The notes: a model not told the origin generated them from the sequence alone. Positions 1,284 through 19,240 are shown, counted from the stretch's first letter. The stretch: DNA of 64,000 nt from an uncultured Planctomycetia bacterium (GCA_964606485.1 CAZSGP010000003.1:270479-334478); one strand, 5' to 3'. Translations and numbers: made by a program.

Positions 1284-2282
1284 TTAAGCCTTTCTCAATA
1301 CGACTTGCATTTTGTAGCCCCAGAGATTCTGGTGCAGTGTTTCAGCCGGAATCGCCCCCAAGAATTTTTCACCGCCATAAGGCGACTGCCCGAAATACGG
1401 ATCCTGATAACTCAGATAATTATTCATCACCGCGATTTCCGAAATCACGGTCGTCAAATGCACAACGCTATAGCCGCACTTTTCGGCAATTCTGCGAATG
1501 GTGTCGGGATTGTATAAATTCACGTGTTCCACTCCGTCAAACATGCGGCATTTGGCCTGCATGAGGCGCGGCGCCAAACCTCCGGCGTTGGGGATCTGAA
1601 GAAACAATACACCCCCGTCTTTAATGAGGCTGCGCATAAAATTCAGCTGCCCCTGTCCGTCGGGGATATGCTCAAACACATCCCACATTGTGATTGCATC
1701 GAATTTTGTGTTTAGTTTCAAATCGCGGACGTCTTGCGTGTACAAGACATGACCTTTTTTTCGGCAAAGCTCGGCTTCTGCGAGACCCAGCTCAATCCCA
1801 TTCGTGCTCCAGCCTTTCTCGCGCGCAACATCAAGAAAAAAACCGCTAGAACAACCAATATCGAGAATCGTTCCCGGCTTTTGATGCGTCGCAATGGCCG
1901 AGAGGCCCATCGAATAAATTTCGCGGTGAAACGCGCTTTCATTGGCTGTAATCGCTGCTTGCCCTGTATTTAGATCTCGGTAATACATCTTTAAATGCTC
2001 ATCCTTGAAAACCGGGTCCAGATACACCATCGTGCAGGCCTCGCAACTCACATAAGTCCCGCCTGAACTGTCAAAAGCCTTCAAAGGTTGATCGGCTCCG
2101 CAAACCGGACAAACGCGGTGCTCGGTGTAACGCGTATCAAACCGACCCGTTTTAGGGTCGATAAATTTCTGGTGATACGCGTTTACAAGTTCATAACTGA
2201 AAGCCCGGCCCTCGTGAAGCGCTTTGGCGTTTTTGGATTCGGTCTTGATCATTTTTAACTCACCCGATGTTTCAGGTGCCAA
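1284..2282 (-). CDS. Class I SAM-dependent methyltransferase with an N-terminal Zn-ribbon
   Basis: CPVCG...CEAC zinc-ribbon followed by the ILDIGCSSGFF glycine-rich SAM motif (Methyltransf_11/23-like). Start may be the internal Met at 2252 (MIKTESKN), which would remove the 28-nt overlap with the upstream gene. Confidence 0.7.
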   Translation of the reverse strand: MAPETSGELKMIKTESKNAKALHEGRAFSYELVNAYHQKFIDPKTGRFDTRYTEHRVCPVCGADQPLKAFDSSGGTYVSCEACTMVYLDPVFKDEHLKMYYRDLNTGQAAITANESAFHREIYSMGLSAIATHQKPGTILDIGCSSGFFLDVAREKGWSTNGIELGLAEAELCRKKGHVLYTQDVRDLKLNTKFDAITMWDVFEHIPDGQGQLNFMRSLIKDGGVLFLQIPNAGGLAPRLMQAKCRMFDGVEHVNLYNPDTIRRIAEKCGYSVVHLTTVISEIAVMNNYLSYQDPYFGQSPYGGEKFLGAIPAETLHQNLWGYKMQVVLRKA

Positions 2283-3451
2283 TCGCTACCGCGTTTTTCC
2301 CATAAGTGAGGGCGGCTTAAGCGGTAATAATCGATAATTTCCCAAAACTCTGCCTCCGTAATGTCGAGGTATTTTAAGAAAACCTGGAAATGCTTTTCCG
2401 GAAACTCGCCGTCGTAACGGTGCACGAGTGCAATCCCCTCTTCACGCGTTAAATGGCTGTCGCGTATTTCATGTGCAGCATCCGAAGTCGCGCGGCAAAT
2501 GCCAAATTTGATGTAGGCCAGCCAATAATGAAATCCGTCGGTTTGGTCATCAATGCTTGCGTATTTGGAATAGGTGCCTTCAGAGCGGCCGGGGTTGGCT
2601 TTGAAACCGCAGTGCTGGGTCGCATAGTAAAAATTTTCCTGCGGCACCCATTTTTTGAAATACGAAAACCAGTGCATTTGAGCGTTGAGTGCTTTAATTT
2701 TTTCAATGGCCGGAGGCCGGTAATGTTCAAAATTTGTGCGCTCCAATTCTTGCTTAGTGAAGCGTCCGTGCTTCTTTCCCTCTTCAACCAAATTATCGAC
2801 ACCGCCTCCGTGAAAATAAATCTCATTCCAATTTTCGGTGCCTTCCGCAGACACATCTTTATTTTCCGTTGAACCTCCGTACTCCACTTCACCGCTTTCG
2901 CCGTAAAAAATCAGCGGAATGCCGTATTTCACAGCCATGTGAAATGCGAGCGCTTTCTGGCCATAGCCGAAGGGCAGAAAATGATCGCCGTATACTTCGA
3001 AAGCAATCCGTGCAAGCTTACGGTGAATTTGCCCGTTTGGAAACACCAACACATTGTCAAAACCTGAATCTTTCCAAGCTACATAATTGTCCCAGCCGAT
3101 TTGCGTGTATACGTAAGGCGCCCAGGTCACTGTGAGCGGATTCATGTTGTACTGGTATTTGAGCATATGGGATACGTAAGCACTGTCCTTGCCGCCCGAT
3201 CCGGGAACCACGCAATCGTAACTACCGTCTTTGGAACGGTATTTATCAAGCAAGGCGTGCAACTGCTCCTCGCGCTTCTTCCAATCAATAACGTGGTGCT
3301 TTTCATGCGCATATTCACACGCACTGCAAACGCCATCCTTGTTAAACGTGATCCGCGGTCGCTGATTGGAAACCACGCATTTTTTACAGTAAAAAACATC
3401 TTTAGGGCTTTTGGCTAGCTGGGTATCGCGTATATTTTTAATAATGGCCAC
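2255..3451 (-). CDS. N-acetyl sugar amidotransferase (WbpG/PseA-type PP-loop ATPase)
   Basis: N-terminal CKKC...CSAC zinc-ribbon and a PP-loop SGGKDS motif, immediately followed by HisH- and HisF-like genes. The likely start is a GTG at 3451 (VAIIKNIRD...), overlapping the HisH-like stop by about 10 nt; the longest ORF runs to 3553. Confidence 0.75.
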   Translation of the reverse strand: MAIIKNIRDTQLAKSPKDVFYCKKCVVSNQRPRITFNKDGVCSACEYAHEKHHVIDWKKREEQLHALLDKYRSKDGSYDCVVPGSGGKDSAYVSHMLKYQYNMNPLTVTWAPYVYTQIGWDNYVAWKDSGFDNVLVFPNGQIHRKLARIAFEVYGDHFLPFGYGQKALAFHMAVKYGIPLIFYGESGEVEYGGSTENKDVSAEGTENWNEIYFHGGGVDNLVEEGKKHGRFTKQELERTNFEHYRPPAIEKIKALNAQMHWFSYFKKWVPQENFYYATQHCGFKANPGRSEGTYSKYASIDDQTDGFHYWLAYIKFGICRATSDAAHEIRDSHLTREEGIALVHRYDGEFPEKHFQVFLKYLDITEAEFWEIIDYYRLSRPHLWEKRGSDWHLKHRVS

Positions 3452-4118
3452 TGGTTTTCTCTTTCTGGGTTTGACACAGTCTGGCAAAGTTGCGGTAAAT
3501 CCGCAGACCTGCCTCGCCGCTTCTTTCAGGGTGAAATTGAAATGCAAAAACATTTTTAAATCTCAACGCCGAACAAAAATTCGTCTGACCGTACTGGGAC
3601 TCGGCAAGCACCACCGCCCTGTCCGCAGGTCTTACATAATAGGAGTGGACAAAATACATAAAATCACCCGGCTCAACTTCATCCATAATCGCACCGCCCC
3701 AGCGGCCGGCCGGAGGATTTATGCGGTTCCAGCCGACATGAGGCACTTTCAGAACTTCGCCCGATTCCTTCGGTTTTTCAAAACGAACCACGTCTCCCGG
3801 GACAATATCAAGACCACGATGCTCTCCAAATTCAAAACTTTTAGACATTAAAAGCTGCATACCTAGACAAATACCCATCACCGGCTTTTCGGCATGAACC
3901 GCCTCCTTCAAAATCGCCTCAAGCCCTAAATCTTGAATCGCCTTCATCGCATCGCCAAAAGCTCCAACGCCCGGCAAAATAATCGCCGGAGCATTTTTGA
4001 TTTGAGCCGGATCGGATAAGATCTTGCCGTTTAAACCCACGTGCTGACAAGCCCGCAGGATACTATAAAGATTTCCAAGACCAAAATCGATGATGGCGAC
4101 CGTGGGAGCGCTAGACAT
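3438..4118 (-). CDS. Imidazole glycerol phosphate synthase HisH-like glutamine amidotransferase subunit (sugar-amidotransferase partner)
   Basis: Class I GATase signatures GICLGMQLL (catalytic Cys) and HPERS. The likely start is the internal Met MSSAPTVAIIDFG at 4118, just after the HisF-like stop; the ORF extends to 4157. Confidence 0.75.
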   Translation of the reverse strand: MSSAPTVAIIDFGLGNLYSILRACQHVGLNGKILSDPAQIKNAPAIILPGVGAFGDAMKAIQDLGLEAILKEAVHAEKPVMGICLGMQLLMSKSFEFGEHRGLDIVPGDVVRFEKPKESGEVLKVPHVGWNRINPPAGRWGGAIMDEVEPGDFMYFVHSYYVRPADRAVVLAESQYGQTNFCSALRFKNVFAFQFHPERSGEAGLRIYRNFARLCQTQKEKTSGHY

Positions 4119-4983
4119 GGGCGGCCTCGCTTTGCGCCGGGCGGCAATCAAGACCATGGTTGATCAGATATTGTTTCACCTGAGCCACCGTAGCGCCAAA
4201 AGTGCGGTTGGATATTTTTTTATCATTCAAAAAATGAAGGTTGCCCTCAGACGAAAAATCGCCTTCAATAGCGTTGTTGTTCACCATGTGATAATGAAAG
4301 AGTGACGCAATACAAGCCGCATCTGCCTTAGCCTTCTCAAACACGTCCGCAATATGCGATAGTTGGCCGGCTCCGCCGCAGGCCACCACAGGAATCGACA
4401 CGGATTCCGAAATGCGGCGCGTAAGCTCCAAATCGTATCCGGTGCCTGTGCCCTCTCGGTCGATCGATGTGATAATAATTTCACCGGCGCCTAATTTAGC
4501 TGCGCGAATCGCCCATTCATAAACATCGAAACCAGTATGTTCACGGCCGTTGTCAGTATAGGCTTCGTAGCTGCCGTCAGGTTTTTTCAGCGCCTCAATC
4601 GAAACAACTATTGTCGAAGAGCCGAATTTGTTTGCCGCTTCAGAAATAAGCTCAGGCCGCTTTACCGCCGCCGTATTCAGCGTTACTTTGTCAGCGCCGG
4701 CGCAGAGAATCTTTCGAATGTCGTCAAGACTGCGAATCCCGCCGCCCACGATGAGCGGAATAAAAATTTCTTTCGATGTTTTTTCGATAATATCCAACAA
4801 CCCATTTCGACCATACAAACTGGCGACCACGTCCATATAAAGAAGCTCATCGACGCCGGCCGCATAATAATGCCGCGCAAATTGCTCGGGCTTTCCCATC
4901 ACACGCAAACCTTCTAAGTGTACGCCTTTAACCAGATTCGGCCCTTTAATATCAAGTCTCGCGATAACGCGCGGGTGTGACAT
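4111..4983 (-). CDS. Imidazole glycerol phosphate synthase HisF-like cyclase subunit (WbuZ-type)
   Basis: (beta/alpha)8 HisF-like sequence (RVIARLDIKGPNLVKG..., GAGEIIITSIDREGTGTGYD). It pairs with the HisH-like gene and the PP-loop amidotransferase, as in O-antigen acetamidino-sugar loci. Confidence 0.75.
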   Translation of the reverse strand: MSHPRVIARLDIKGPNLVKGVHLEGLRVMGKPEQFARHYYAAGVDELLYMDVVASLYGRNGLLDIIEKTSKEIFIPLIVGGGIRSLDDIRKILCAGADKVTLNTAAVKRPELISEAANKFGSSTIVVSIEALKKPDGSYEAYTDNGREHTGFDVYEWAIRAAKLGAGEIIITSIDREGTGTGYDLELTRRISESVSIPVVACGGAGQLSHIADVFEKAKADAACIASLFHYHMVNNNAIEGDFSSEGNLHFLNDKKISNRTFGATVAQVKQYLINHGLDCRPAQSEAAHV

Positions 4984-5690
4984 TAGCTTTTTAATCCTTC
5001 CGCAAAAAGTTCGGCGACTTTAAAATCATAGGGCGTATCAATCTCAATTGAGCGCTCTCTGGGCATTTCATAAAGCCGCGTTCCAAGATTAAACACTTTC
5101 CCTTGTTTTAGTGAGCGCCGGGTCCACAAATAAATCGAAGCGTTTAAATCGTAGCAAATTGGCGAATCCTGGCGGCGCACCACTTTAAAGCGCGGCGCCT
5201 TCGAAAGCTTCACCGTCCCCACCGAGGTTTTCTCTGCCAAGTTGAAATAGGGCGATTTCCGGGCCAAAGCTCCGGTGATCACATTGGGAGCCTTGGTTTT
5301 TTTTAAAAGATCGATGCAGCCGCGGATATCCCCAATCGTTCTAAACGGTGACGTTGGATCTAGATCGCAGATGAGGTCAAATGTCATACCCGTCACCCTT
5401 TCGACTTCGGCCACACAATGCTGTATAGCAGGTACTTTCGGAGCGTTGTCAGTGGCAAGGTGTGCAGGTCGTTTAATCAGATAATCAGCCCCCCATCTTT
5501 TCGAAATCTTTAGAATATCTTGAGAGTCACTTGACACTGCAACCCTATCAAATAAACCTGATTTTTTAGCCAAAAGAATCGTATGAGCAATTAAGGGTTT
5601 GCCATTTAAAAGCTTGATATTCTTGCTCGGTACGCCCTTAGAGCCACCACGCGCGCAAATCGTACAAATAATTTTCAAAGTTTCACCCAT
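4983..5690 (-). CDS. CMP-nonulosonic acid synthetase (acylneuraminate cytidylyltransferase family; LegF/NeuA-like)
   Basis: CTP_transf_3-type N-terminus (ICTICARGGSKGVPSKNIKLLNGKPLIAHTI) and a ~235-aa length. It lies next to the NeuB/NeuC homologues. Confidence 0.8.
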   Translation of the reverse strand: MGETLKIICTICARGGSKGVPSKNIKLLNGKPLIAHTILLAKKSGLFDRVAVSSDSQDILKISKRWGADYLIKRPAHLATDNAPKVPAIQHCVAEVERVTGMTFDLICDLDPTSPFRTIGDIRGCIDLLKKTKAPNVITGALARKSPYFNLAEKTSVGTVKLSKAPRFKVVRRQDSPICYDLNASIYLWTRRSLKQGKVFNLGTRLYEMPRERSIEIDTPYDFKVAELFAEGLKS

Positions 5691-6586
5691 TTTTTTTGAC
5701 GCGCCGCTTTTTCCACAGCATCAACCACGCGAACAACCTCTAACGCATCCTTCACGGAACATAAATTGTCATTTTTTTTCAAAATAACTGCGCGATGCTG
5801 TTCGCGGTAGGTAAAATCTCTTTCTGCCGCATAACCTTCTTCTTTTCCATCAATACTCACCATCCCTTTGACCAGATCTGCTTTAAAAGTATGCCGGTCA
5901 GTGTTCACCAGAATCTCGCGACGTCCCGGACGATCCAAATAATTAATTTGTACGGTTACCAGTGGACAGCGGCTGGTTTCCATAAGCATACCAAAAGCAT
6001 CATCTGAATCAATCTTCAAAGCGCTAAAATGTCCGCCGATTGCTGCCACTCGCTTACAAGAGCCAAAAACCCAGCCAATTACGTCCAACTCGTGACTTAA
6101 GTCCCTTAATACTCCTCCGCCTTGATTTTTTTTGGCAGAATAGCATTTACGATAATCGCCCGGCCGCCAATTGGGTAAATAACCTCCCGCATACACCTGC
6201 GCCGAAATAATCTTTTCCTTTTTTAAAAGCGTTTTTAATCGCACAAGCGCCGGATGGAATCTCAGATTATAACCGACCGCCACGCTTTTAAAGTCGAACC
6301 TTCCCAGTTTTTGAGGTGTGTCGTAGAGAGGCTTTTCGACAAGGACTGCACCCTTAAAACCGCTTAAGTCCAGCACTCTTAGACTTTCCGCATGCGCCGA
6401 GGTCTCATTCGCTACTACAACGTATTCGGGCAACCAACCCTTAACAGCTTTGGCAATGGATGCGAACACCGGAAATGGCTCGGAAAGCTTGCGGCGCGAC
6501 ACCAAAGCAACATCACAACCCAGTTCTTTCAACACGCGCGCATGGCGCCGTCCGATCGAACCATAACCAATCACAAGGCTTTTCAA
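5675..6586 (-). CDS. Gfo/Idh/MocA-family NAD(P)-dependent oxidoreductase
   Basis: N-terminal Rossmann MKSLVIGYGSIGRRHARVL and a family-typical length. A similar oxidoreductase gene occurs in legionaminic acid loci. Confidence 0.65.
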   Translation of the reverse strand: MKSLVIGYGSIGRRHARVLKELGCDVALVSRRKLSEPFPVFASIAKAVKGWLPEYVVVANETSAHAESLRVLDLSGFKGAVLVEKPLYDTPQKLGRFDFKSVAVGYNLRFHPALVRLKTLLKKEKIISAQVYAGGYLPNWRPGDYRKCYSAKKNQGGGVLRDLSHELDVIGWVFGSCKRVAAIGGHFSALKIDSDDAFGMLMETSRCPLVTVQINYLDRPGRREILVNTDRHTFKADLVKGMVSIDGKEEGYAAERDFTYREQHRAVILKKNDNLCSVKDALEVVRVVDAVEKAARQKKWVKL

Positions 6587-7632
6587 CGGAATACCTCCGA
6601 AAACTCCCCGTTGGCGCGCTCTAAATCATCCATGCGGCCGATGTCGAGCCAATACTCACGAATCGGAAATGCTGCGGCCTTGTATTTTTTATAAATTAAT
6701 TTCTGGAAAAGCTGCGGCATGTCCATCGCTGCATTTTTAGGCAGATACTTCAAAGTATCGGGACCGAGCAAATAAATGCCGGCATTCACATAAAAACGAT
6801 GCGCTGGCTTTTCATCAATCCCAAGAATGTGATGCCCCGTCATTTTTACTACACCAAACGGCACCTGGAAATCGTATTCACGCACGCACATCGTCGCATC
6901 GGATTTATTTTGCGCATGAAAATGCAAAAGCTGGCTGAAATTAACCTTAGTCAAAAGATCCCCGTTCATCACAAAAAACGGTTTAGCCGGTTTGGAAGGC
7001 AAAAGACTTAGCGCTCCGGCCGTACCAAGCTTCTGGGTTTCCTCAAGATAGCGAATATGAACGCCCCATTTCGAACCGTCTCCAAAGTGGCGCTTCACCA
7101 TTTCATTCTTGTAGTTCACGGCAATATAAAAATTCTTAAATCCGTATTCAATAAAGTTTTCTAAAATGGTTTCGAGAATGGGTTTAGTGCCAACGTTCAG
7201 AAGCGGCTTGGGGCAATTGTCGGTGAGCGGCTTCAAACGCGAGCCCAAGCCCCCCGCCATCAACACCACCCAGTTCTCCCGTGATCCTGCGCTCAAAAGC
7301 TCGTCGAGATATTCTAGTCCCGCCACACGGTTTTTTTTGTCGACGAGCGGAACTTGATGGATCTGCTTTTTTTTCATCAGCGTCAATATCGTCTCACGAT
7401 CCTCTCCTAACGGAGCGGAGACACAGCGCTTTCGCATGATTCGCTCGACCGGCTCATCGAGACCGATGCCTCGCAGAATTCCGCGCCGCACGTCCCCATC
7501 CGTCACCGTGCCTAATAATTTTTTTTCAGCGTCAACCACAACACCGATTTGAAGTGAGTGGGTATCGATAATTTTAATCAGATCCCGAATAGGGGTCTTG
7601 GGCTTAACCAGCGCTTTTTCCCAGAGCTTCAC
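6583..7632 (-). CDS. CBS-domain sugar-1-phosphate nucleotidyltransferase (PtmE-like GlcN-1-P guanylyltransferase candidate)
   Basis: N-terminal CBS pair followed by the nucleotidyltransferase motif MAGGLGSRLKPLTDNCPKPLL. This architecture matches the Campylobacter legionaminic acid pathway enzyme PtmE. Confidence 0.75.
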   Translation of the reverse strand: MKLWEKALVKPKTPIRDLIKIIDTHSLQIGVVVDAEKKLLGTVTDGDVRRGILRGIGLDEPVERIMRKRCVSAPLGEDRETILTLMKKKQIHQVPLVDKKNRVAGLEYLDELLSAGSRENWVVLMAGGLGSRLKPLTDNCPKPLLNVGTKPILETILENFIEYGFKNFYIAVNYKNEMVKRHFGDGSKWGVHIRYLEETQKLGTAGALSLLPSKPAKPFFVMNGDLLTKVNFSQLLHFHAQNKSDATMCVREYDFQVPFGVVKMTGHHILGIDEKPAHRFYVNAGIYLLGPDTLKYLPKNAAMDMPQLFQKLIYKKYKAAAFPIREYWLDIGRMDDLERANGEFSEVFR

Positions 7633-8219
7633 TGAGGCATCCCCTTGCCCACTGTAGAGCCCGCCGAAACAAAACCTTTAATAATCTGCCCTTGAATTGA
7701 TTCAGCGCCTGTGCCAACATGCGTATTCGGCTCCACGCAAACACCGCCGCTCAAAGTAACTCTAGGTGCCAAATGGACGTGATCTCCAATTTTACAGTCA
7801 TGATCTACGGATGCGCATGTGTTGATGATTGTATTTTTTCCGATTACAGTTCCTGTTTGAATTACAACGCCGGCCATGATTTGCACCCCTTCTCCTAATT
7901 CGGTCCCCTGTGCCAGCACCGCGGACGGATGGATCACATTAGTGAAGGAGTACCCCATTTTTTTAAAGCGTTCATAAATTTCGCGACGCTTGGAAGTGTC
8001 TCTGATCGAACCGATACCGTTGACGAGTCCCACTTCTTTTTTCCATTTTTCATTCTGAAGCACTTCGTCTGCACCTAAATAAGGCACCGACCGCCCACCC
8101 ACGCTCATTTGGGTTTGAACCGGATCGACGAAACCCACAATTTTAATTTTATTTTTTAACAGCGTGTCCACTAGGACGCGCGCATGCCCGCCGCCGCCAA
8201 TCACAATAACAGACTTCAT
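7629..8219 (-). CDS. NeuD/PglD-family hexapeptide N-acetyltransferase (LegH-like)
   Basis: N-terminal Rossmann-like IVIGGGGHARV followed by left-handed beta-helix hexapeptide repeats in the C-terminal half, in a ~196-aa protein. Confidence 0.75.
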   Translation of the reverse strand: MKSVIVIGGGGHARVLVDTLLKNKIKIVGFVDPVQTQMSVGGRSVPYLGADEVLQNEKWKKEVGLVNGIGSIRDTSKRREIYERFKKMGYSFTNVIHPSAVLAQGTELGEGVQIMAGVVIQTGTVIGKNTIINTCASVDHDCKIGDHVHLAPRVTLSGGVCVEPNTHVGTGAESIQGQIIKGFVSAGSTVGKGMPQ

Positions 8220-10444
8220 GAGACCTCCACTGCTTCGTCGCGTTTAAAACTTTTTTTAGCTGTTTTACCAATCAAATCCCAATACTGCATGGGCGATAAG
8301 CCGCTTCCCGGTCTCTTGGCCGTTAAATTTTTTTCGGTAAACCGCTCACCTTTTCGAATATCTTCTTTGGCCACCAGGCTTTTGCGCGCCACCATTCGGT
8401 TCTTTATTTCGCAATCCGCCGGCTTTTTTTCTGACGAACCCAGAAGCACTTCGACCTGTCTAACCATTTGAACAAGTTCGGAAAATTCGCTCGGCGATAG
8501 CGATGCGCGGTGATCCGGTCCTGGTAGCTTTTTATCAAGCGTTAGATGTTTTTCAATCACTTGAGCTCCTCGAGCCGCAGCAGCCACCGATGCCGCAATG
8601 CCAACCGAATGATCTGAGAGTCCGACCGATAATCCAAAACGTGCTCGTAAAGTGTCCATCGCAAACAAATGGATAGCTTCGAAAGGTGCCGGATACTCCG
8701 TCGTGCAATGCAGCAAGGTTACTTTTTCGCGCAAAACTGCAGCTCCTTTAGCCGAGTAAAATGCTTTCTCAAAATCAGCCTGGCCGGCGGGTTTGGCATA
8801 ACGATTCAGATAGCCAAAAGCCAGCGCCCCTAATGCGCGCTCAATATCATTCAAATCCGTCATTCCCGTAGACACAATAACCGGAAGCCCGGTGCGCGAC
8901 GCCGCCAGCAAAAGCGGCGCATTGGTAATCTCACCGGACGGAATTTTCAAACGTTTTAGGCCTAGAGCTGTTAAAAGCTCAAGGCTCTTTAGATCAAAGG
9001 GTGTGGATAGAAAATCAATGCCTGCGCGTGCCGCGTAAGCCAAAAGCTCACGATGCGCGCGCTCATCCAGCTCCAGTTTTTTGAGCATTTGCCACTGGGT
9101 TTCAGAGACGCTAGTGGATTTTTTTTGATAATCAGCCTTCTCGGCATTTTTTGAAACAAGCGCGTCCGCTTTGAAGGTTTGAAATTTCACCGCATCAGCC
9201 CCAGCCGCTTTTGATGCATCAATCAAACGTTTAGCTAAATTTAAATCACCGTTATGATTCACCCCTGCTTCCGCAATCACATAAACTTTTTGGGCAAAAC
9301 AGTCAGTAGAACAAAAGCTCTTTTTAACCAACGTTTGTGAATCAACAAGTTTTTCCTTCAAGATCCGGTGAATGCGCCCCGCGCTTTGGCCATCGCCGTA
9401 CGGATTGATGGCATCGGAACAATCCATCAAAAAACTTTTGTGGATTGCGGTAAGGATCGCATCCTTGTCAGCGCGAGATTCAATCACTGACGATGCGGCA
9501 AGTCGTCCCTTTTGGCGATCTCCGATATTCACGGTAGGAATTTTAAAAGACGGCACTTCGTAGAAACCACTCGAGGAGTTACCGACCACCACATTCACAT
9601 GACTCAGAACACTGTAATAAAGCTTTTGACCTAGAGACGGGTAAAAGTGCGCGTTTTTATGCTGCCGGCAAAAAACCTTAATGGCCGCTCGAATTTCATC
9701 GGAGCCCGGATCTGAATTAGGCGCCGTAAAAATAAGACTCGTGTCCGGTCCGAGCTCCGCCAAAGCCGTTAAAAGCGCGGCGATTCCCTGTTTCGAATTT
9801 TGAGCGATTGTTTCCGGATGATACGTTACGAGAAGGTTTTTGGTTAAAAATTTAAATCCCAACGCTTTTTCAGTTTCTTCGCGCGGCAAAAGAGCAAGCG
9901 TACGGATTAAATCCAGCGCCGGACTACCGACGTTAAAAACATTCGACGGATTCTCGCCCATCTGCAAAATCCTTCCCCGCGAAGATTCATTCGTTGCAAA
10001 ATGAAGGTGCGAAAGCTTGGTGATCGCATGACGCACCGAATCATCAAACGCTCCCTCGGTAAGATCGCCGCCGGCGATGTGCGCCACGGGAATATTTGCA
10101 AGAACCGCTGCCTGGGCTGCGCCCAAGATCTCATAACGATCACCGACCACAACCACTGCATCCGGCTCCAGTCGCTTAAAAGCTTCGCCTAGTCCCTTTA
10201 CGGCTTTGGCTAACTCAGTTGCCGTCCCGCCGCCCAAAATTGGCACGCGCGCATCCACTCGAAACCCGTCTTTTTCAATTTCACGCACGGTAAAGCCATG
10301 TGCTTTACTCAAATGTGTTCCGGTCACCACGATCTGCAGACGCATGTCGCGATCGGCTTTTAAATTTCGCATCAACTGGCTTAAATAGCCGTATTCGGCT
10401 CTTGAGCCCGTCACAACACATACCTTTCGAACTCTTTTCTTCAT
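8216..10444 (-). CDS. Bifunctional fusion of a hydrolysing NDP-sugar 2-epimerase (NeuC/LegG-like, N-terminal) with a nonulosonic acid synthase (NeuB/LegI-like with SAF domain, C-terminal)
   Basis: One uninterrupted 742-aa ORF. Residues 1-~380 look NeuC-like (CVVTGSRAEYG..., HPET..). Residues ~385-742 look NeuB-like (VYVIAEAGVNHNGDLNLAKRLIDASKAAGADAVKFQTF, plus a C-terminal SAF/antifreeze-like segment). Confidence 0.8.
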   Translation of the reverse strand: MKKRVRKVCVVTGSRAEYGYLSQLMRNLKADRDMRLQIVVTGTHLSKAHGFTVREIEKDGFRVDARVPILGGGTATELAKAVKGLGEAFKRLEPDAVVVVGDRYEILGAAQAAVLANIPVAHIAGGDLTEGAFDDSVRHAITKLSHLHFATNESSRGRILQMGENPSNVFNVGSPALDLIRTLALLPREETEKALGFKFLTKNLLVTYHPETIAQNSKQGIAALLTALAELGPDTSLIFTAPNSDPGSDEIRAAIKVFCRQHKNAHFYPSLGQKLYYSVLSHVNVVVGNSSSGFYEVPSFKIPTVNIGDRQKGRLAASSVIESRADKDAILTAIHKSFLMDCSDAINPYGDGQSAGRIHRILKEKLVDSQTLVKKSFCSTDCFAQKVYVIAEAGVNHNGDLNLAKRLIDASKAAGADAVKFQTFKADALVSKNAEKADYQKKSTSVSETQWQMLKKLELDERAHRELLAYAARAGIDFLSTPFDLKSLELLTALGLKRLKIPSGEITNAPLLLAASRTGLPVIVSTGMTDLNDIERALGALAFGYLNRYAKPAGQADFEKAFYSAKGAAVLREKVTLLHCTTEYPAPFEAIHLFAMDTLRARFGLSVGLSDHSVGIAASVAAAARGAQVIEKHLTLDKKLPGPDHRASLSPSEFSELVQMVRQVEVLLGSSEKKPADCEIKNRMVARKSLVAKEDIRKGERFTEKNLTAKRPGSGLSPMQYWDLIGKTAKKSFKRDEAVEVS

Positions 10445-11586
10445 AAAAAGGCACTCGACGGAATATTGAGAATTCGCCGCTCTAGGTCCTCTGCGATACT
10501 CAAATCCATTTTTGGACAGCTCTTAAACATGGGGAGCTTGTGCATTAAAACCCAAGCCGGCCGCGTCATCAACCCACTCTCGTTGGTTTTGGCCAACACG
10601 GCATCTCTGTGGCCGGAATTTTTGGAATCGAGCAGAAGTACATTCAGCCAGTAATTACTCTTAGCATACGAAGGCTCCTTAAAAAACCGAACCCCCTCGA
10701 TTTTTTCAAAATTTTTCTGGTAGCGCGTTGCAAGCTTTCGCTTCGCCTCGAGCATCTTGGGAAGCGTTTCCAGCTGTGCGCAACCTAGTGCCGCATTAAG
10801 ATTGGGGAGCCGGTAATTAAAACCGACTGCATCATGGTAAAAATTCCACGGGTGTTTGGCCTTTGCGGTCGTGGTTAGATGCTTGATTTGTTGGGCCAAC
10901 TTCGGATCTGCGGTCATCACGGCGCCGCCCCCGCCCGTAGTCACGATTTTGTTGCCGTTAAAACTAAGACAGGAAAACTTTCCGGCAAAACCCGTATGCT
11001 TTTTCTTATAAAAACTACCGAGCGACTCTGCTGCATCTTCGATCAGAACAATATGATGACGATCCGCCGTCGCTTTAATGGCGTCCAAGTCTACCGGATG
11101 CCCGTAGGTATGCATTGCAATCAGCGCCGGAATGCGCTTACCGGTTTTTTTATTAAAGCATTCACCGTTTTTTTGAAGCGTTTCTTTTTTTAGCCAGGCA
11201 TCAAGTTTGCTGGCATCAACACCGAGAGAATTTTCTTCACTGTCCACGAAATGCGGCTCCGCCCCGCAGTAGGTCACCGCATTGGCCGTCGCGACAAAGG
11301 TTAGAGTCGGCACGAGCACCTCGTCCCCTTCTTTTACGCCGGCCATTCTCAAGCAGATATGCAGCGCTGCCGTTCCGTTCATCGTCGCAACAGAAGAAAT
11401 GCCCGTAAAATCGGTGAGAATCTGCTCGAAGCGGTCTACAAATTTACCAGCTGAGGACACCCATTTGGTGTCAATGCATTCTTTCACATAATCGGCTTCA
11501 TTGCCCTCAAACAAAGGCTCGTGCAAATTGGCCTTTGCACCCACGGTCGCACGAATCGCCGAAAAAATCGCGTCGGAAACGGGCAT
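10441..11586 (-). CDS. DegT/DnrJ/EryC1/StrS-family PLP-dependent sugar aminotransferase (LegC/PglE-like)
   Basis: Fold-type I sugar aminotransferase sequence of ~380 aa with the FNGNKIVTTGGGGAVM region. It is located within the nonulosonate operon. Confidence 0.8.
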   Translation of the reverse strand: MPVSDAIFSAIRATVGAKANLHEPLFEGNEADYVKECIDTKWVSSAGKFVDRFEQILTDFTGISSVATMNGTAALHICLRMAGVKEGDEVLVPTLTFVATANAVTYCGAEPHFVDSEENSLGVDASKLDAWLKKETLQKNGECFNKKTGKRIPALIAMHTYGHPVDLDAIKATADRHHIVLIEDAAESLGSFYKKKHTGFAGKFSCLSFNGNKIVTTGGGGAVMTADPKLAQQIKHLTTTAKAKHPWNFYHDAVGFNYRLPNLNAALGCAQLETLPKMLEAKRKLATRYQKNFEKIEGVRFFKEPSYAKSNYWLNVLLLDSKNSGHRDAVLAKTNESGLMTRPAWVLMHKLPMFKSCPKMDLSIAEDLERRILNIPSSAFL

Positions 11587-12254
11587 TAGTCGCGATCCTT
11601 GATAATATATTTAGGGGTGTTGCAAAAAGGGAAACTGCGGATTTTAACTTTCCTGCCTTTAAAATAATCATCCACCGCTTTGGTTTCACCGGCAAAAACC
11701 CCGTAATCATCCAGCGCCAAAATCCCGCCCTTCACAAGCCTTGGGTAGAAACGCTCTAAGATAGTCACCGCCGGTTCATATATATCGGTATCCAGATTCA
11801 ATAGGGAAATTTTCAGATTTGGATACTTGCGCAGATAAGCAGGGACGGTTTTTAAAATATCTCCTTTAAGGCATTCTATATTTTTGGAAGTTTTTTTAGC
11901 CGCTAAAACTTTCATCAATTGCTCTGCGCCGATACCCTCTTCACCGGCCGTTTGAATAAAACGCTTACGAAGTTTTTGATCATCAGCAAAACCTGTTTCG
12001 GGAAATTTTCCAAAGGCGTCGAAACCTAAAATTTTTTTTGAGTCCGCTTGGCCAAAAAGCTCACGAAAAATAGCAAAACGACAGAGCGACGCACCTTTAA
12101 AAACACCGCACTCAACTATCGCCCCCTTAACACCCATGCTCATTTTATAAAGTTCGTAATGAGCGAGCATTTTCCCGATTCGCTGTGGCTGACAGGATAA
12201 ATAGAATGAGTTTTCGTATTCGAATGCTTTTTTAAAATCAGGCAATGTGATCAT
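11586..12254 (-). CDS. TylF/MycF-family SAM-dependent O-methyltransferase
   Basis: Macrocin-O-methyltransferase-like sequence (GAIVECGVFKGASL, LDTDIYE). Start is taken at the internal Met MITLPDFKK (12254), which gives a 17-nt overlap with the upstream gene; the ORF extends to 12389. Confidence 0.65.
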   Translation of the reverse strand: MITLPDFKKAFEYENSFYLSCQPQRIGKMLAHYELYKMSMGVKGAIVECGVFKGASLCRFAIFRELFGQADSKKILGFDAFGKFPETGFADDQKLRKRFIQTAGEEGIGAEQLMKVLAAKKTSKNIECLKGDILKTVPAYLRKYPNLKISLLNLDTDIYEPAVTILERFYPRLVKGGILALDDYGVFAGETKAVDDYFKGRKVKIRSFPFCNTPKYIIKDRD

Positions 12255-13266
12255 AGGCGTCCTTGTAATGAATAACATAATTACCGTAAAAATTGCGGTT
12301 TTGGACAGTGTCGGTGAAAGCGCCGGCTTTAAGTGCCGCCAAGAGCTCCTCAATCCCCATCGGAATTGTGTAGCGAGGCTCAAAACCAAGCCGGGATTTT
12401 ATTTTTGAAAAGTCGACGCGATAATTACGCGGGTCGGAACCATGTTCTTTGAATTGGACTACCGCCCCCGGTACGCGCCGGCGAATCTCATCGAGAATTG
12501 TTTGCTTGGTTGCATTATTGGCTTGCCCGCCGGCATTAAAGACCTCGAAGGCCACATCTTGAGAGCGCGCCTCTATTGCCTTCTGAATCACGACTGCAAA
12601 ATCCTTCACGTGGCAATAGGGCCGCCACGTATGTGCGTCGTACACCAAAAGCTCTTTGCCTCGCGCCAACTCATGTGTAAATTCGTTAACCGTCAGATCA
12701 AAACGCATGCGCGGTGAAAGCCCAAAAGCTGTGGCAAAACGCAAAATCACAGGCTCGTAATCGACCTGGCCTTTAAGCGATAACAATGTTTTTTCCATCT
12801 CGACTTTGGCTTGGGCGTAGGTAGACAGCGGACTCAACTTGAAATTTTCATCGGCAAGCTCGTTATCCTTAATCAGTCCGTAATTCGAGCAAGTTGAAAC
12901 GAAAATCACGCGGCTCAGCTTCCTCCCATTCAAATCTGCAATCAAGTCAAGCATTCCGTCACGATTAATTTTTTTAGATTCTTCAGGATATTTTTTGGTG
13001 ATAGGGTCTCCGACGAGGCCCGCCAGTATCACAACCTCGGAAACACCCTCGAGCGCCTTTCGCCGCGCAGCGGGTTCCACAAAGTCGCCGGTCATACACT
13101 CAAAGTTTGGATGGTTCAAAAGCGGTTCGATCGATTTGTGATTCTGGTAAAGAAACAGATCCAGGCATCGCACTGAGTAGCCGTTTTTTAATAGTGCCTC
13201 GCACAACACTGATCCGATATACCCTGCACCACCGATCACCAGTACATTTTTTTTCATTTTAAGCAA
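12238..13266 (-). CDS. NAD-dependent sugar epimerase/dehydratase (extended SDR)
   Basis: N-terminal VLVIGGAGYIGS Rossmann motif, extended-SDR length (342 aa) and a YAQAK (YxxxK) catalytic motif. Candidate 4,6-dehydratase/epimerase step of the nonulosonate pathway. Confidence 0.7.
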   Translation of the reverse strand: MLKMKKNVLVIGGAGYIGSVLCEALLKNGYSVRCLDLFLYQNHKSIEPLLNHPNFECMTGDFVEPAARRKALEGVSEVVILAGLVGDPITKKYPEESKKINRDGMLDLIADLNGRKLSRVIFVSTCSNYGLIKDNELADENFKLSPLSTYAQAKVEMEKTLLSLKGQVDYEPVILRFATAFGLSPRMRFDLTVNEFTHELARGKELLVYDAHTWRPYCHVKDFAVVIQKAIEARSQDVAFEVFNAGGQANNATKQTILDEIRRRVPGAVVQFKEHGSDPRNYRVDFSKIKSRLGFEPRYTIPMGIEELLAALKAGAFTDTVQNRNFYGNYVIHYKDAYDHIA

Positions 13267-14458
13267 CCCTCGACTGAATTCGATTCACCACAATGTCCGC
13301 AAAAGCGAAGCTACTCGTAAAAGCCGGTGACACCGCATTAAGAATGTGTGTTGACCGCGGGCCGTCTTCAATTAAAAAATCCATCACGAGTTTTAAAGAT
13401 TTTTTATCAACGAGCTGAGCACGAAGCCCGACTTTTCCGCAAGATTGAATGTCTTCTTTTTTTAAGAACGGCGCCAAGCGCTGGATACACTTTAGAAATA
13501 CAGACGGATTGTATTTGAAAATTTCCTGACGCACCAACGTGCGAAAGCCGTTTAGATTTTTTAGCATCATCCTGGAAAGATCGCGAGCGATGCCGGCCCA
13601 TTCACCGTCAATACCACTAAACAAACCATAATTTTCACGGCCAAAAGCCGGAATAGCCGTCGGACCCACGTACACCTCGCCCGAGACGGTTTTGGTGGTG
13701 TGAACCCCTAGAAACGGTACATCCAGATCTGGTACCGGGTAAATGGATCCGCGAAAACGCGACGCCGCCTCTGGGCGCAGCTTGCGGTAGATTCCCTTAA
13801 ACGGCATAATTTTGTAACGCTCTCCCACTCCCATGGCATGAGCCACTTCGTCAGCATGAAGTCCCGCGGCATTGATAAGGTGTCCGAAGTGAATTTTAGA
13901 GGATCCACAAGATAAGAAACCGCTTTCAATGTCGCCCAACCGCGCGTTTTTCCGAATCGTCACGCCTTGCGCTGTGATGTCATTTTCCAAAGCAGCCAAC
14001 ACAGCCTTTGAATCAATCACATTAGTATCTGGTGAAAAAATAGCGGCCTCAACCGTGCGCGCTTCTGGCTCAATCTGAGAAAGCCTTTTTTCGTCGATGA
14101 GTTCAACGCGTACGCCGTTGGCACGGCCGCGGTCAAATAAATTTTTCAAAGAAGACACTTGAGAAACATCAGATGCAACAATGACTTTTCCGTTCTTAGC
14201 CAAAGGAAGTTTTTTTTCAGCGCAGTAATCCGCAAGTAGTCGCGCGCCGGCGGCGCAAACTTTAGCTTTTAAGGAATCGGGAGCGTAGTAAATACCAGTG
14301 TGCAAAACACCGCTGTTGCGGCCGCTAGAATGAAGGCCAAGTGCGCGCTCTTTTTCGAGAATGCAGACCGTACCCAGCTTCAGCGCCGCAATTTTTCTAG
14401 CCACCGCCAAACCCACGATGCCCGCCCCGACAATAACGAAGTCGTAACGCTCGCTCAT
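13259..14458 (-). CDS. FAD-dependent oxidoreductase, L-2-hydroxyglutarate oxidase (LhgO)-like
   Basis: Dinucleotide-binding N-terminus YDFVIVGAGIVGLAVA and a DAO-family length. The substrate is unknown in this context. Confidence 0.6.
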   Translation of the reverse strand: MSERYDFVIVGAGIVGLAVARKIAALKLGTVCILEKERALGLHSSGRNSGVLHTGIYYAPDSLKAKVCAAGARLLADYCAEKKLPLAKNGKVIVASDVSQVSSLKNLFDRGRANGVRVELIDEKRLSQIEPEARTVEAAIFSPDTNVIDSKAVLAALENDITAQGVTIRKNARLGDIESGFLSCGSSKIHFGHLINAAGLHADEVAHAMGVGERYKIMPFKGIYRKLRPEAASRFRGSIYPVPDLDVPFLGVHTTKTVSGEVYVGPTAIPAFGRENYGLFSGIDGEWAGIARDLSRMMLKNLNGFRTLVRQEIFKYNPSVFLKCIQRLAPFLKKEDIQSCGKVGLRAQLVDKKSLKLVMDFLIEDGPRSTHILNAVSPAFTSSFAFADIVVNRIQSRVA

Positions 14459-14717: not shown

Positions 14718-14813
14718 ATCATATCATTACCAGTCATTGGCAGTCAAACATAGATGTGGGAGAGCTTAAAAATATCATTGCAGGCCCTATCAATAAAATA
14801 TAGAATTTCTCCC

Positions 14814-16286
14814 ATGCTCTTCAATTCCTTTGAATTCGCAGTATTTTTCCCTATCGTCACACTCCTCTACTTTGTTTTACCTCATTCAATGCGATGGTTA
14901 CTGCTGTTAATCGCCAGTTGCTATTTTTACATGGCGGCGATACCCGTTTATATCCTAGTGCTTTTCATACTGATTGGAATTGATTATGTCGCCGGCATTT
15001 TCATCGAGCAAAGCTCCGGGAAAAGACGTAAGTTGTATTTGATTATCAGTTTGATTTCAAATTTAAGTGTTTTGGCTTTATTTAAATACTTCAACTTCTT
15101 TAACGCCAACATAGCTGCACTTGCCAAACTCTTAAACTGGAATTACCCCGTCCGCGCGCTTGAACTCATATTGCCCATCGGGCTGTCCTTTCACACATTT
15201 CAAGCAATGAGCTACACCATTGAGGTTTATCGCGGCCAACAAAAAGCCGAACGACACCTGGGGATTTATGCTTTGTATGTCATGTTCTATCCTCAGCTCG
15301 TTGCAGGTCCAATTGAGCGCCCGCAAAATCTAATTCATCAGTTTCACGAAAAACATACGTTCGATGCGATCAGGGTTTCTGATGGCCTAAAATTAATGCT
15401 ATGGGGGCTTTTCAAAAAAATCGTGATAGCGGATCGTCTTGCAATTCTGGTCAACCACGTTTACGACTCACCACTGGACAAGCCTGGAGCCATCTTGCTC
15501 CTTGGCACCGTGTTTTTTGCCTTTCAGATTTACTGCGATTTCTCCGGCTACGCGGACATCGCAATCGGCTCCGCTCAAGTGATGGGTTTCAAGCTCATGG
15601 ATAACTTCAATAGGCCCTATGCCGCGCGCTCTATCGCTGAATTTTGGAAACGCTGGCACATTTCACTCAGCACCTGGTTCAAGGATTATCTCTACATTCC
15701 GCTCGGCGGAAACCGCGTTGCTCAACCGCGTCTTTACTTTAATCTATTGATCACCTTTTTGATCAGCGGTCTTTGGCACGGAGCCAACTGGACATACGTA
15801 GTATGGGGCGCGCTTAATGGCTTTTATCTAGCTATGTCAATGACGACGGTTCATATTCGAAAAAAAATAACGGACGCATTAGGCTTCGACCGCAGGCCCA
15901 CACTTCACAAGTGGGTTAAAGTAAGTTCGACTTTTTCGTTAATTTGTTTCGCCTGGATTTTTTTTAGAGCCAATTCTATCAGCGAAGCGCTGATGATTAT
16001 TCAACGCATTTTTTTGGATTTTGGAAAGTCAATAAATCCAACTTATCTTCGCTACGATGTTTTCACGTTAAAGAATATGGGTTTTTATAAAACGGACCTA
16101 CTACTGGCCCTTGTGTCCATTGCGCTTATGGAATTTATTCACAAAATCCAGACGCACGGCAGCATTCGCCACATGCTTAGGCAGTATAATATTTTCATTC
16201 GCTGGGGCCTTTATTACGCAATGATTCTATCTATTGTCTTTTGCGGCGTTTTTAAATATACACCGTTTATCTATTTTCAGTTTTAG
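14814..16286 (+). CDS. MBOAT-family membrane-bound O-acyltransferase (AlgI/DltB-like)
   Basis: MLFNSFEFAVFF start typical of AlgI/DltB, multi-pass membrane sequence, and the conserved His region (WHISLSTWFKDYLYIPLGG, LWHGANW). Start is taken at the internal ATG 14814; the ORF begins at 14754. Confidence 0.8.
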   Translation: MLFNSFEFAVFFPIVTLLYFVLPHSMRWLLLLIASCYFYMAAIPVYILVLFILIGIDYVAGIFIEQSSGKRRKLYLIISLISNLSVLALFKYFNFFNANIAALAKLLNWNYPVRALELILPIGLSFHTFQAMSYTIEVYRGQQKAERHLGIYALYVMFYPQLVAGPIERPQNLIHQFHEKHTFDAIRVSDGLKLMLWGLFKKIVIADRLAILVNHVYDSPLDKPGAILLLGTVFFAFQIYCDFSGYADIAIGSAQVMGFKLMDNFNRPYAARSIAEFWKRWHISLSTWFKDYLYIPLGGNRVAQPRLYFNLLITFLISGLWHGANWTYVVWGALNGFYLAMSMTTVHIRKKITDALGFDRRPTLHKWVKVSSTFSLICFAWIFFRANSISEALMIIQRIFLDFGKSINPTYLRYDVFTLKNMGFYKTDLLLALVSIALMEFIHKIQTHGSIRHMLRQYNIFIRWGLYYAMILSIVFCGVFKYTPFIYFQF

Positions 16287-16293
16287 AAATCCT

Positions 16294-17298
16294 ATGAAAA
16301 AATGGCTCTTAAGATACGCTGGTTTTACTGCTGGATTTGTTACACTCTACATCGCATTCATGTGGCTGGCAGCGCTTCCGGTTCTCGATAAGTACCCTCA
16401 CCTGCGATATCTGTTTCTGGATCGTAAAATTGTGAAGCTCGTAACAAATGCCGGCAATCTTGAAGCTGACAATAACGATGGTGCTAATTTATTAAGATTT
16501 CAAGAGCTTCGAAAAACCGGCCAAGTTGATATTTTGGCCCTTGGCTCATCGCATTGTTACATGTCGTTTGATCCGCGCGTATTCTCGCAATACGGACTAT
16601 CCAGTTTTGCGTTGGGTAGCGGCAGCCAAACACCCCTAAACTCCTACTATCTGCTCAAGACCTATTTTCCGCAACTAAAACCCAAATTAGTCATCTTAGA
16701 CGTCTATTCACTCGTCAACGAAAGCGATGATGGACTGGAAAGTTTTTGCGAAATCTTGGTTAGTAGTCCGATCCACGTAAATTTAATTCGAATGGCTATG
16801 GCAACTTCCTCGATGCACGCCTTCAACGCACTAACCTTTGAATGGATGCGGCGAATTTGGCTACCTCTCGAGAATCGGGTTCAATCCCCAACTTTTTCGG
16901 GTGAGTATGTATCCGGCGGTTATGTGGTCGACAATACCACCTTTGACGGTACCGGTTCGTTTAAAAACCGGAATTTGCGTTTGTCAAAAAAGCAGTTGGG
17001 CTACTTAGAAAAGATCATCCGCGCCGTTCAAAAAGAAAACTCAAAGATTGTGCTAGTGACAGTTCCGTACTCGTATGAGTATCGCCAAAGTTTTTTGAAT
17101 GATGAGGAGCTCGCGGGCACCTATCGATTGCTGGCCACAAAACACCACATCTCTTACTATGACTTTAATGCGTTAATGGACACTCGAAACAACGCTTATT
17201 TTTCCGATAAAAGCCATTTGAATGGTTATGGCGCTGAAACCTTTTGCCATCTTTTGATGAAGGTAATAAAATCAGATCCGCTCTATCAGTCGCTCTAA
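16294..17298 (+). CDS. DltD/AlgX/AlgJ-like SGNH-type partner protein of the MBOAT acyltransferase
   Basis: N-terminal membrane anchor MKKWLLRYAGFTAGFVTLYIAFMWL followed by LALGSSHC (a SGNH-like Ser-His region). It starts 8 nt after the MBOAT stop; the ORF begins at 16234. Confidence 0.55.
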   Translation: MKKWLLRYAGFTAGFVTLYIAFMWLAALPVLDKYPHLRYLFLDRKIVKLVTNAGNLEADNNDGANLLRFQELRKTGQVDILALGSSHCYMSFDPRVFSQYGLSSFALGSGSQTPLNSYYLLKTYFPQLKPKLVILDVYSLVNESDDGLESFCEILVSSPIHVNLIRMAMATSSMHAFNALTFEWMRRIWLPLENRVQSPTFSGEYVSGGYVVDNTTFDGTGSFKNRNLRLSKKQLGYLEKIIRAVQKENSKIVLVTVPYSYEYRQSFLNDEELAGTYRLLATKHHISYYDFNALMDTRNNAYFSDKSHLNGYGAETFCHLLMKVIKSDPLYQSL

Positions 17299-19160: not shown

Positions 19161-19212
19161 TACACGTAGGGAAAATCATTTTTCATAGCGGGTATGTTAT
19201 CACAATTCAAAT

Positions 19213-19240
19213 TGATTTTAGCCCTAAAAAGTCGTAGATT
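19213..19240 (+). promoter_or_regulatory. Candidate sigma70-type promoter (TTGATT-16-TAGATT) for the plus-strand glycan operon
   Basis: Hexamers at 19213..19218 and 19235..19240 lie 7 nt upstream of the ATG at 19248, with AAGG as a possible RBS. Confidence 0.3.

Follow-up and report, generated by a model that had tools for sequence, protein, structure and literature searches.

A putative single-chain fusion of the hydrolysing 2-epimerase and the synthase of legionaminic acid biosynthesis in an uncultured Planctomycetia bacterium

Can two consecutive enzymes of nonulosonic acid biosynthesis, a NeuC/LegG-type hydrolysing nucleoside diphosphate (NDP)-sugar 2-epimerase and a NeuB/LegI-type synthase that uses phosphoenolpyruvate (PEP), be carried by one natural polypeptide? 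This question is raised by a 64,000-nucleotide stretch of DNA from an uncultured Planctomycetia bacterium (GCA_964606485.1 CAZSGP010000003.1:270479-334478; the whole stretch is hereafter referred to as the window), in which a single gene appears to encode both enzymes, one after the other. The gene was examined for its reading frame, domains, catalytic residues, predicted fold, relatives and neighbours, and is considered, with a probability of about 0.85, to encode a genuine bifunctional LegG-LegI enzyme of the pathway to cytidine monophosphate (CMP)-legionaminic acid.

The original prediction of a continuous open reading frame (ORF) of 742 residues at positions 8216-10444 was exact in its coordinates; the ORF lies on the minus strand, begins with ATG and contains no internal stops in the ORF listing. 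A NeuC-like N-terminal half, a NeuB-like C-terminal half with an SAF domain and a junction around residues 380-390 had also been proposed, and these are borne out by end-to-end matches of both halves to family models above their cut-offs and by a linker at residues 378-386. The Pfam family Epimerase_2 (PF02350) matches residues 27-363 over profile positions 2-347 of 347 (E-value 1.9e-81, 274 bits, cut-off 30.6), NeuB (PF03102) matches residues 407-673 over positions 1-241 of 241 (1.4e-89, 300 bits) and SAF matches residues 688-739 (8e-11). Among the NCBIfam models, NeuC_NnaA (TIGR03568) covers residues 6-362 with model positions 1-365 of 365 (431 bits against a cut-off of 235.9) and NeuB_NnaB (TIGR03569) covers residues 387-738 with positions 1-328 of 329 (472 bits, cut-off 399.65). 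The WecB model, for non-hydrolysing enzymes, scores only 98 bits on the N-terminal half, under its cut-off of 210, and the PseI model 269 bits on the C-terminal half, under its cut-off of 340. Two full-length domain matches in the same frame, each with an E-value under 1e-80, far exceed what chance would give, and the predicted product is a single chain that comprises a NeuC/LegG-type hydrolysing 2-epimerase and a NeuB/LegI-type synthase with its SAF domain.

Alignment of each half to NeuC and NeuB, which the original prediction had put forward as a check, found the family catalytic residues kept in both. In the epimerase half, D102, R103, E105, H122, G125, G126, D134, R138, H209, S290, S291 and E296 are identical to those of Acinetobacter baumannii NeuC and show little or no variation among 159 homologues, fused and stand-alone; the motifs GDR, GG(E/D)xTEG, DD/DE-RH, HP and GNSSSG-E are common to the two proteins. 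Position 127 is Asp in the window protein and Glu or Asp (82:75) in the family, and as this split is about 50:50 in fused and stand-alone proteins alike, Asp127 is regarded as normal variation. In the synthase half, alignment with the structure 1XUU equates E392, K420, Q422, K500, S503 and S525 with E25, K53, Q55, K129, S132 and S154 of Neisseria meningitidis NeuB (NmNeuB), Y584, H612, E631, H633 and D644 with Y186, H215, E234, H236 and D247, and R711 of the SAF domain with R314, and none of these residues varies among 42 aligned fused proteins. By equivalence with NmNeuB, H612 and H633 are presumably metal-binding, K420, K500, S503 and S525 PEP-binding, and E392 and E631 catalytic, with R711 from the SAF domain completing the active site. 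Thr occurs at position 582 where NmNeuB has N184. The synthase barrel also carries an insertion of about 35 residues (residues 539-574; window 8720-8830), absent from NmNeuB and PseI, that splits the HMMER alignments in two and is modelled as two to three helices. The C-terminal halves of stand-alone relatives are of similar length (about 355-365 residues), which suggests that the insertion is not specific to the fusion.

An AlphaFold2 monomer model built with the 42-sequence alignment has a mean predicted local distance difference test score (pLDDT) of 93.4 and a predicted template modelling score (pTM) of 0.86, with no segment below 50 and most of the epimerase half above 90. Foldseek comparison with the PDB superposes the N-terminal half on A. 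baumannii NeuC (5XVS; template modelling score, TM, 0.91; root mean square deviation 2.4 A), a fold of two Rossmann domains (GT-B-like), and on human GNE (4ZHT; TM 0.90), and the C-terminal half on NeuB (1XUU; TM 0.81) and PseI (8H2C; TM 0.84-0.86), a TIM barrel followed by an antifreeze-like domain. The same comparison returned no solved chain in the PDB that spans both halves, the query-normalised TM being at most 0.48. The high pTM of the model hints at a fixed orientation of the domains.

About nine non-conserved residues join the two halves, the sequence at residues 372-399 being ...LVKKSF-CSTDCFAQK-VYVIAEAGVNHNG. Across the fused proteins, the segment from K-x-F, the last motif conserved in the epimerase, to V-I-A-E-A-G, the first strand of the synthase, differs in sequence and is constrained in length, with 13-17 residues between the invariant F377 and A391 in 38 of the 42. 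The model places the linker region at a pLDDT of about 79-89 and contains no disordered linker. The junction DNA has neither a stop, an ATG nor a Shine-Dalgarno-like purine run; its sole candidate start is a GTG (V388), two residues ahead of IAEAG and likewise with no such purine run before it, unlike the stand-alone legI genes, in which a Met stands 5-15 residues upstream. An internal start for a separate LegI was considered and rejected, this GTG alone being present and lacking a ribosome-binding site.

Relatives were searched in an index of 5.8 billion proteins, the query being split into halves to score the architecture. The identical 742-residue protein is recorded both from NCBI and from the independently assembled Logan set, and each of the 40 hits that follow is a full-length protein of 725-782 residues. 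At least 45 clusters, 40-56% identical to the window protein along the whole chain, have the NeuC-NeuB order (for example P0002-P0045). One fused relative (P0007) occurs on 6 contigs, of which the two shown come from different JGI samples, and another (P0030) lies on a 1.5-Mb contig. Both share the gene order short-chain dehydrogenase/reductase (SDR), DegT aminotransferase, fusion, PglD-like acetyltransferase and CBS/nucleotidyltransferase, with a cytidylyltransferase after the set in P0007 and before the SDR gene in P0030. As judged from these records, the fused state is a reproducible and evolutionarily maintained architecture. The reverse order (NeuB, SAF, Epimerase_2; 710-770 residues) was found in at least 13 clusters (P0042, P0046-P0054, P0061, P0124-P0129). 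At 50% identity the reverse-order fusions form at least 8 clusters, one of which (P0074) is named as coming from a Patescibacteria metagenome-assembled genome (MAG). Their SAF domain, which NeuB subunits exchange with each other, is internal to the chain.

HMMER, run exhaustively over 1.84 billion representatives at 50% identity, gave 7,706 proteins at E-values of 1e-30 or lower, and the architecture was read for the best 150. These include 4-5 same-order fusions, namely P0005 (the representative of the window protein), P0025, P0040, P0123 and P0055, which is partial, and 8 reverse-order ones; more distant fusions could lie beyond the best 150. GTDB was scanned through its species representatives, and no fused gene was found in the best 80 loci among the 600 pattern matches listed, which are a sample of GTDB and no full count. 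In 47 of these 80 loci legG and legI are two ORFs, legI coming directly after legG; the two overlap or abut in another frame in 37, share a frame with several stops between in 3 and share a frame with exactly one stop codon between in 7. In 11 loci legI precedes and abuts legG, and in the remaining 22 the genes are apart, on opposite strands or represented by one half only in the locus.

The seven single-stop loci (L001, L002, L005, L006, L007, L033 and L047; near 9140-9190 in most, near 4230 in L007) come from genomes that include Pseudomonas laurentiana JCM 32154 and Paenibacillus sp. S150, and in them the legI ATG stands a few codons past the stop. At the junction of L001, ...KKHFYEVD(stop)GMTGNQRVRIIAEAG, a change of the stop codon would give the linker length of the fused family. 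As abutting pairs sit one stop from fusion, the obvious route to the fused gene is that the stop codon is lost or that a small indel restores the frame, and these seven loci are, on their reading frames, the putative state immediately before fusion. Read-through or recoding in them was rejected, a Met start lying just after each stop and the taxa using the standard code. In L070 and L071, long frames without stops that precede legG were also considered as further fusions and rejected, as they hold no extra domain.

Neighbour-joining trees with 100 bootstraps each were constructed for the N-terminal (159 sequences) and the C-terminal (166 sequences) halves. A single origin of the same-order fusions was rejected, the best F1 values being 0.64 and 0.61 and F1 = 1 being reached in 0 of 100 bootstraps for either half. 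The fusions fall into two large groups and singletons, and therefore several fusion or fission events are indicated. In the point-estimate trees the window protein belongs to a mostly fused clade (22 of 24 members for the N-terminal half, 19 of 20 for the C-terminal half).

The pathway to which the fusion belongs is indicated by its neighbours. It lies in a long, co-directional and tightly packed operon on the minus strand (Table 1), its ATG overlapping the legC stop by 4 nucleotides (ATGA) and its stop overlapping the legH start by 4 nucleotides. PMC5378307 gives the legionaminic acid pathway as LegB, LegC and LegH, then LegG (NDP removal and C2 epimerisation), LegI (condensation) and LegF, an order that agrees with the original prediction of consecutive steps for the two halves; the same source takes PtmE to point to guanosine diphosphate (GDP)-linked intermediates. 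The predicted gene content of the operon is of the Campylobacter/Tannerella type for legionaminic acid, and for this reason the protein is read as LegG-LegI and not as the NeuC-NeuB of sialic acid synthesis; the PtmE-like gene may point to a GDP-linked precursor route. The PseC model scores 230 bits on the LegC-family aminotransferase, under its cut-off of 423, and the LegB model TIGR04180 (cut-off 475) gives 135 bits for another SDR, encoded at 19194-20237. The operon also holds a WbuX/HisH/WbuZ set, a PtmA-like SDR and two methyltransferases, and its end product is therefore probably a derivative of legionaminic acid with acetamidino and/or methyl groups, not plain Leg5Ac7Ac. No second legG or legI was found among the ORFs of at least 150 residues scanned in window 542-23437. 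The flavin adenine dinucleotide (FAD)-dependent oxidoreductase gene heads the sugar operon and overlaps the SDR gene by 8 nucleotides, and what its product would do in a nonulosonate pathway is hard to see.

Table 1. Positions in the window of the predicted fusion, its domains and the genes of the surrounding operon
Feature	Position	Strand	Details and evidence
Fused legG-legI gene	8216-10444	-	742 residues, ATG start; ORF call, Pfam, NCBIfam
Hydrolysing NDP-sugar 2-epimerase domain (NeuC/LegG type), N-terminal, residues 1-377	9314-10444	-	Pfam, NCBIfam, residue alignment, fold
Junction/linker, residues 378-386 (CSTDCFAQK)	9287-9313	-	Alignment of fused family, DNA inspection
Nonulosonate synthase TIM-barrel domain (NeuB/LegI type), residues 387-675	8420-9286	-	Pfam, NCBIfam, alignment, fold
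SAF (antifreeze-like) domain, C-terminal, residues 688-739	8228-8383	-	Pfam; R711 aligned to NmNeuB R314
FAD-dependent oxidoreductase	13259-14458	-	L-2-hydroxyglutarate oxidase model, 332.8 bits (cut-off 299)
SDR epimerase/dehydratase, LegB position	12238-13266	-	LegB model TIGR04180 weak, 69 bits (cut-off 475); position as in relatives
TylF-like methyltransferase, between SDR gene and legC	11586-12389	-	Profile match
LegC-family aminotransferase, directly upstream of fusion, translationally coupled	10441-11586	-	TIGR04181, 532.6 bits (cut-off 420)
NeuD/PglD-family N-acetyltransferase (LegH role), directly downstream of fusion	7629-8219	-	TIGR03570, 184.6 bits (cut-off 160.8)
PtmE-like CBS + nucleotidyltransferase (NTP_transferase)	6583-7632	-	Domain architecture; same architecture by fusion in relatives
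Gfo/Idh/MocA oxidoreductase	5675-6586	-	Profile match
Cytidylyltransferase, candidate CMP-nonulosonate synthetase (LegF role)	4983-5690	-	CTP_transf_3, 66 bits; PseF best NCBIfam, 127.8 bits (cut-off 205.7)
WbuX amidotransferase + HisH-like + WbuZ/HisF-like genes (acetamidino modification set)	2255-4983	-	Profile matches
Class I methyltransferase, distal end of operon	1284-2282	-	Profile match
PtmA-like SDR, distal end of operon	542-1279	-	Profile match

Several points weigh against a genuine, inherited LegG-LegI enzyme. The window protein falls in a clade at least 90% fused and with at least 10 members in only 39% (N-terminal half) and 57% (C-terminal half) of the bootstraps, so that its placement is unstable, and each of its domains is 53-59% identical to the best stand-alone homologues and about equally so to the fused ones, because of which the phylogeny alone is no proof of an inherited fusion. 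NCBIfam names the two halves NeuC and NeuB, after the sialic acid pathway, and the legionaminic acid assignment thus rests on gene context, in which the SDR at the LegB position reaches 69 bits only (cut-off 475) and the cytidylyltransferase stays under the PseF cut-off. Every fused member is, moreover, known from sequence alone. That the fusion is a sequencing or assembly artefact, the real genome having abutting legG and legI genes merged by a miscalled stop or an indel, might be argued from the source, a metagenome-assembled contig, and from the best GTDB loci, none of which is fused and most of which have two abutting ORFs; as seven of them stand one stop codon from fusion, one base error could create a false fusion. 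The recurrence of the architecture in divergent clusters, at least 45 of them with the same linker length, and, for P0007, on six contigs, the two shown being from different JGI samples, however, makes an error confined to the window unlikely. The identical protein in the NCBI and Logan assemblies, the junction with its lone GTG in place of the upstream Met of stand-alone legI genes and the confidently modelled linker also argue against an artefact, which is considered very improbable. Degeneration of one half, leaving a monofunctional protein in which the other domain is a mere scaffold, is a generic possibility for fused enzymes for which nothing specific speaks here; all the catalytic and ligand-binding residues checked are kept in both halves and are invariant across the 42 fused proteins, and as no second legG or legI was seen in window 542-23437, both activities would be needed from the fusion gene. 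Such degeneration is therefore given the slightest of chances.

A true N-acetylneuraminic acid (Neu5Ac) enzyme, a NeuC-NeuB fusion acting on uridine diphosphate (UDP)-N-acetylglucosamine and N-acetylmannosamine (ManNAc), would accord with the NCBIfam equivalog cut-offs of NeuC_NnaA and NeuB_NnaB, which both halves pass. No separate LegG or LegI model was returned from NCBIfam for the halves, however, and the NeuB and NeuC models may absorb the Leg enzymes; the best solved match of the N-terminal half bears the PDB name 'GDP/UDP-N,N'-diacetylbacillosamine 2-epimerase (hydrolyzing)'. Neu5Ac synthesis requires no 4-aminotransferase, PglD/NeuD-type acetyltransferase, SDR dehydratase or PtmE-like nucleotidyltransferase, whereas the fusion gene is flanked by those for a LegC-family 4-aminotransferase and a PglD/NeuD-type N-acetyltransferase, with an SDR and a PtmE-like gene in the operon, and the Neu5Ac alternative is held to be improbable. 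A further question is whether a LegG-LegI enzyme passes the hexose from the epimerase site to the synthase site through a dedicated channel or closed interface, as the original prediction had supposed for a labile intermediate. The pTM of the two-module chain and the short, ordered linker suggest a fixed inter-domain orientation, the linker length is kept across the fused family, and with either gene order fusions have arisen or been kept. The linker sequence is, however, not conserved, thousands of family clusters are unfused as compared with the 4-5 fused ones among the best 150 of 7,706 at 50% identity, and as none of the best 80 GTDB loci is fused, any advantage of fusion does not appear to be strong. 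The intermediate, 2,4-diacetamido-2,4,6-trideoxy-D-mannose, is a free reducing sugar. PMC5378307 reports it as released by stand-alone LegG and seen directly as the product of the isolated enzyme, and no evidence that it is labile was found in the literature looked at. A dedicated channel is therefore regarded as unlikely, and it is likewise doubtful that the fusion forms a defined oligomer, combining the domain-swapped dimer of the synthase with the dimer or tetramer of the epimerase, in which both active sites would face a shared cavity and the intermediate would never equilibrate with the cytosol.

For the bifunctional LegG-LegI enzyme, we infer a mechanism from family knowledge and the conserved residues. 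The N-terminal module of two Rossmann domains would take NDP-2,4-diacetamido-2,4,6-trideoxy-alpha-D-glucose, the nucleotide being most likely GDP given the PtmE-like neighbour, expel the nucleotide and re-hydrate the sugar with inversion at C2 to yield free 2,4-diacetamido-2,4,6-trideoxy-D-mannose. The C-terminal TIM barrel, with a divalent metal held by H612 and H633 and its active site completed by R711 of the SAF domain, would then condense this sugar with PEP to legionaminic acid (Leg5Ac7Ac), which the products of the downstream genes would activate with CMP and probably amidinate and methylate. In a minimal reading the benefit of the fusion would be a fixed 1:1 stoichiometry and co-assembly of the two activities. 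Its origin is most simply explained by the loss of the stop codon between abutting genes: a legG-then-legI arrangement would have lost the stop of an in-frame pair, or undergone a small frame-restoring change.

The predicted fusion is rare, recurrent and biochemically uncharacterised, its parts being well-known enzymes and their join unusual. If both activities are true, it would be the first natural enzyme studied in which a single chain performs both of the late, committed steps towards legionaminic acid, and would be of practical use for making this sialic acid mimic, which is employed in glycoengineering, by chemo-enzymatic means. It would also offer a clean system in which to ask whether joining consecutive enzymes of a sugar pathway gives a kinetic benefit, and it makes an evolutionary route visible, from abutting genes through in-frame pairs one stop apart to fusion. 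Should the oligomer with a shared cavity be true, nonulosonic acid biosynthesis would gain its first natural bienzyme with channelling, and the protein would serve as a one-protein catalyst from NDP-N,N'-diacetylbacillosamine and PEP to legionaminic acid. Fusions of consecutive enzymes are common in general, the knowledge of the pathway is unchanged by this one and its architecture is already present, though unstudied, in public sequence data; to a specialist the fusion would seem plausible more than surprising, and it would be of value mainly as a possible biocatalyst and as an example on which enzyme fusion can be tested.

Ordinary chromosomal DNA makes up the remainder of the window, with genes for SMC, FabF, the futalosine pathway and a P-type ATPase, and its G+C content is flat at about 0.47. 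The named relatives of the FabF protein are 79-83% identical to it and come almost all from MAGs of Candidatus Omnitrophota, to which the host, too, probably belongs. A second fusion of enzymes of one pathway, the futalosine route to menaquinone, is seen at 38166-40151 on the minus strand, where a 661-residue ORF combines a VitK2_biosynth domain (MqnA/MqnD family, residues 6-264) with a complete MqnC radical-SAM enzyme (residues 305-649; TIGR03699, 451 bits). Four paralogues of PMT_2/GT-C-type membrane glycosyltransferases and a YfhO-like membrane protein are encoded at 17295-19160, 24104-25582, 25579-27858, 27833-29488 and 30223-31845, and an MBOAT gene (14754-16286), an Acyl_transf_3 gene (20234-21409) and an ArnC/PgfS-like GT2 gene (22502-23437) lie near the glycosyltransferases; this predicted glycosyltransferase and acyltransferase cluster looks like a large surface-glycan island beside the Leg operon. 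An 853-residue ORF at 56589-59150 on the plus strand matches DUF748 and AsmA-like profiles only weakly and below threshold, and gave no match in NCBIfam.

The nearest known systems are the Leg loci of Campylobacter jejuni (LegG, Cj1328; LegI, Cj1327) and Tannerella forsythia (BFO_1065, BFO_1066), which, according to PMC5378307, perform in the same order the two reactions predicted for the window protein. Their LegG and LegI belong to the domain families that the window protein matches end to end, and of their neighbours, LegC and an N-acetyltransferase recur in the window, where LegB, PtmE and LegF have candidate counterparts. They are two polypeptides from adjacent genes, whereas the window has one chain, epimerase then synthase, with a join of about nine residues; in Campylobacter-type loci (L073, L075) the gene order is also opposite, legI preceding legG. 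The best solved relative of the N-terminal half is A. baumannii NeuC (5XVS, 5ZLR, 5ZLT; E-value 3e-83, TM 0.91), with 39% identical residues when the structures are aligned; this NeuC has one domain of about 380 residues and lacks the synthase module of the window protein. NmNeuB (1XUU, 1XUZ) and C. jejuni PseI (8H2C) show the TIM barrel, C-terminal SAF domain, metal-binding His pair and SAF arginine of the C-terminal half; they are stand-alone proteins of about 350 residues that lack the insertion of about 35 residues, and NmNeuB differs at N184 (T582 in the window protein) and in its substrate, which is ManNAc and for the window synthase probably 2,4-diacetamido-6-deoxy-mannose.

No natural NeuC-NeuB or LegG-LegI fusion was found described in the open-access literature searched or the PDB, and the 'neuB-neuC' of PMC13457516 was set aside, being an expression cassette. 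The novelty implied by the original prediction thus stands for a characterised bifunctional enzyme but not for the architecture, which is already present in at least 45 public clusters, some of them carrying the double automatic JGI name 'N-acetylneuraminate synthase/UDP-hydrolysing UDP-N-acetyl-D-glucosamine 2-epimerase'. Fusions of NeuB with a PglD-type acetyltransferase are common among the database hits, and likewise those with a cytidylyltransferase, a formyltransferase or a PemK-like partner, making the synthase a frequent fusion hub; it is often fused to an epimerase, acetyltransferase, cytidylyltransferase or formyltransferase of nonulosonate pathways. The acetyltransferase fusions match the NeuD-NeuB interaction cited in PMC2408645. 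An unexpected partner is a PemK/MazF-like toxin domain (PF02452, residues 28-129 in P0079), which precedes a full NeuB with SAF domain in P0079, P0110 and P0119. Among described proteins, Leptospira interrogans NeuB bears a C-terminal phosphatase-like domain, a sequence-inferred fusion of the synthase to another pathway activity described in PMC3438082, whereas the partner of the window synthase is an N-terminal epimerase. The characterised vertebrate bifunctional UDP-N-acetylglucosamine 2-epimerase/ManNAc kinase GNE (4ZHT) similarly joins the same epimerase family (E-value 2.6e-50, TM 0.90) to the enzyme of the next step, but its partner is a kinase of another C-terminal fold in the animal Neu5Ac pathway, and in the window that partner is the synthase.

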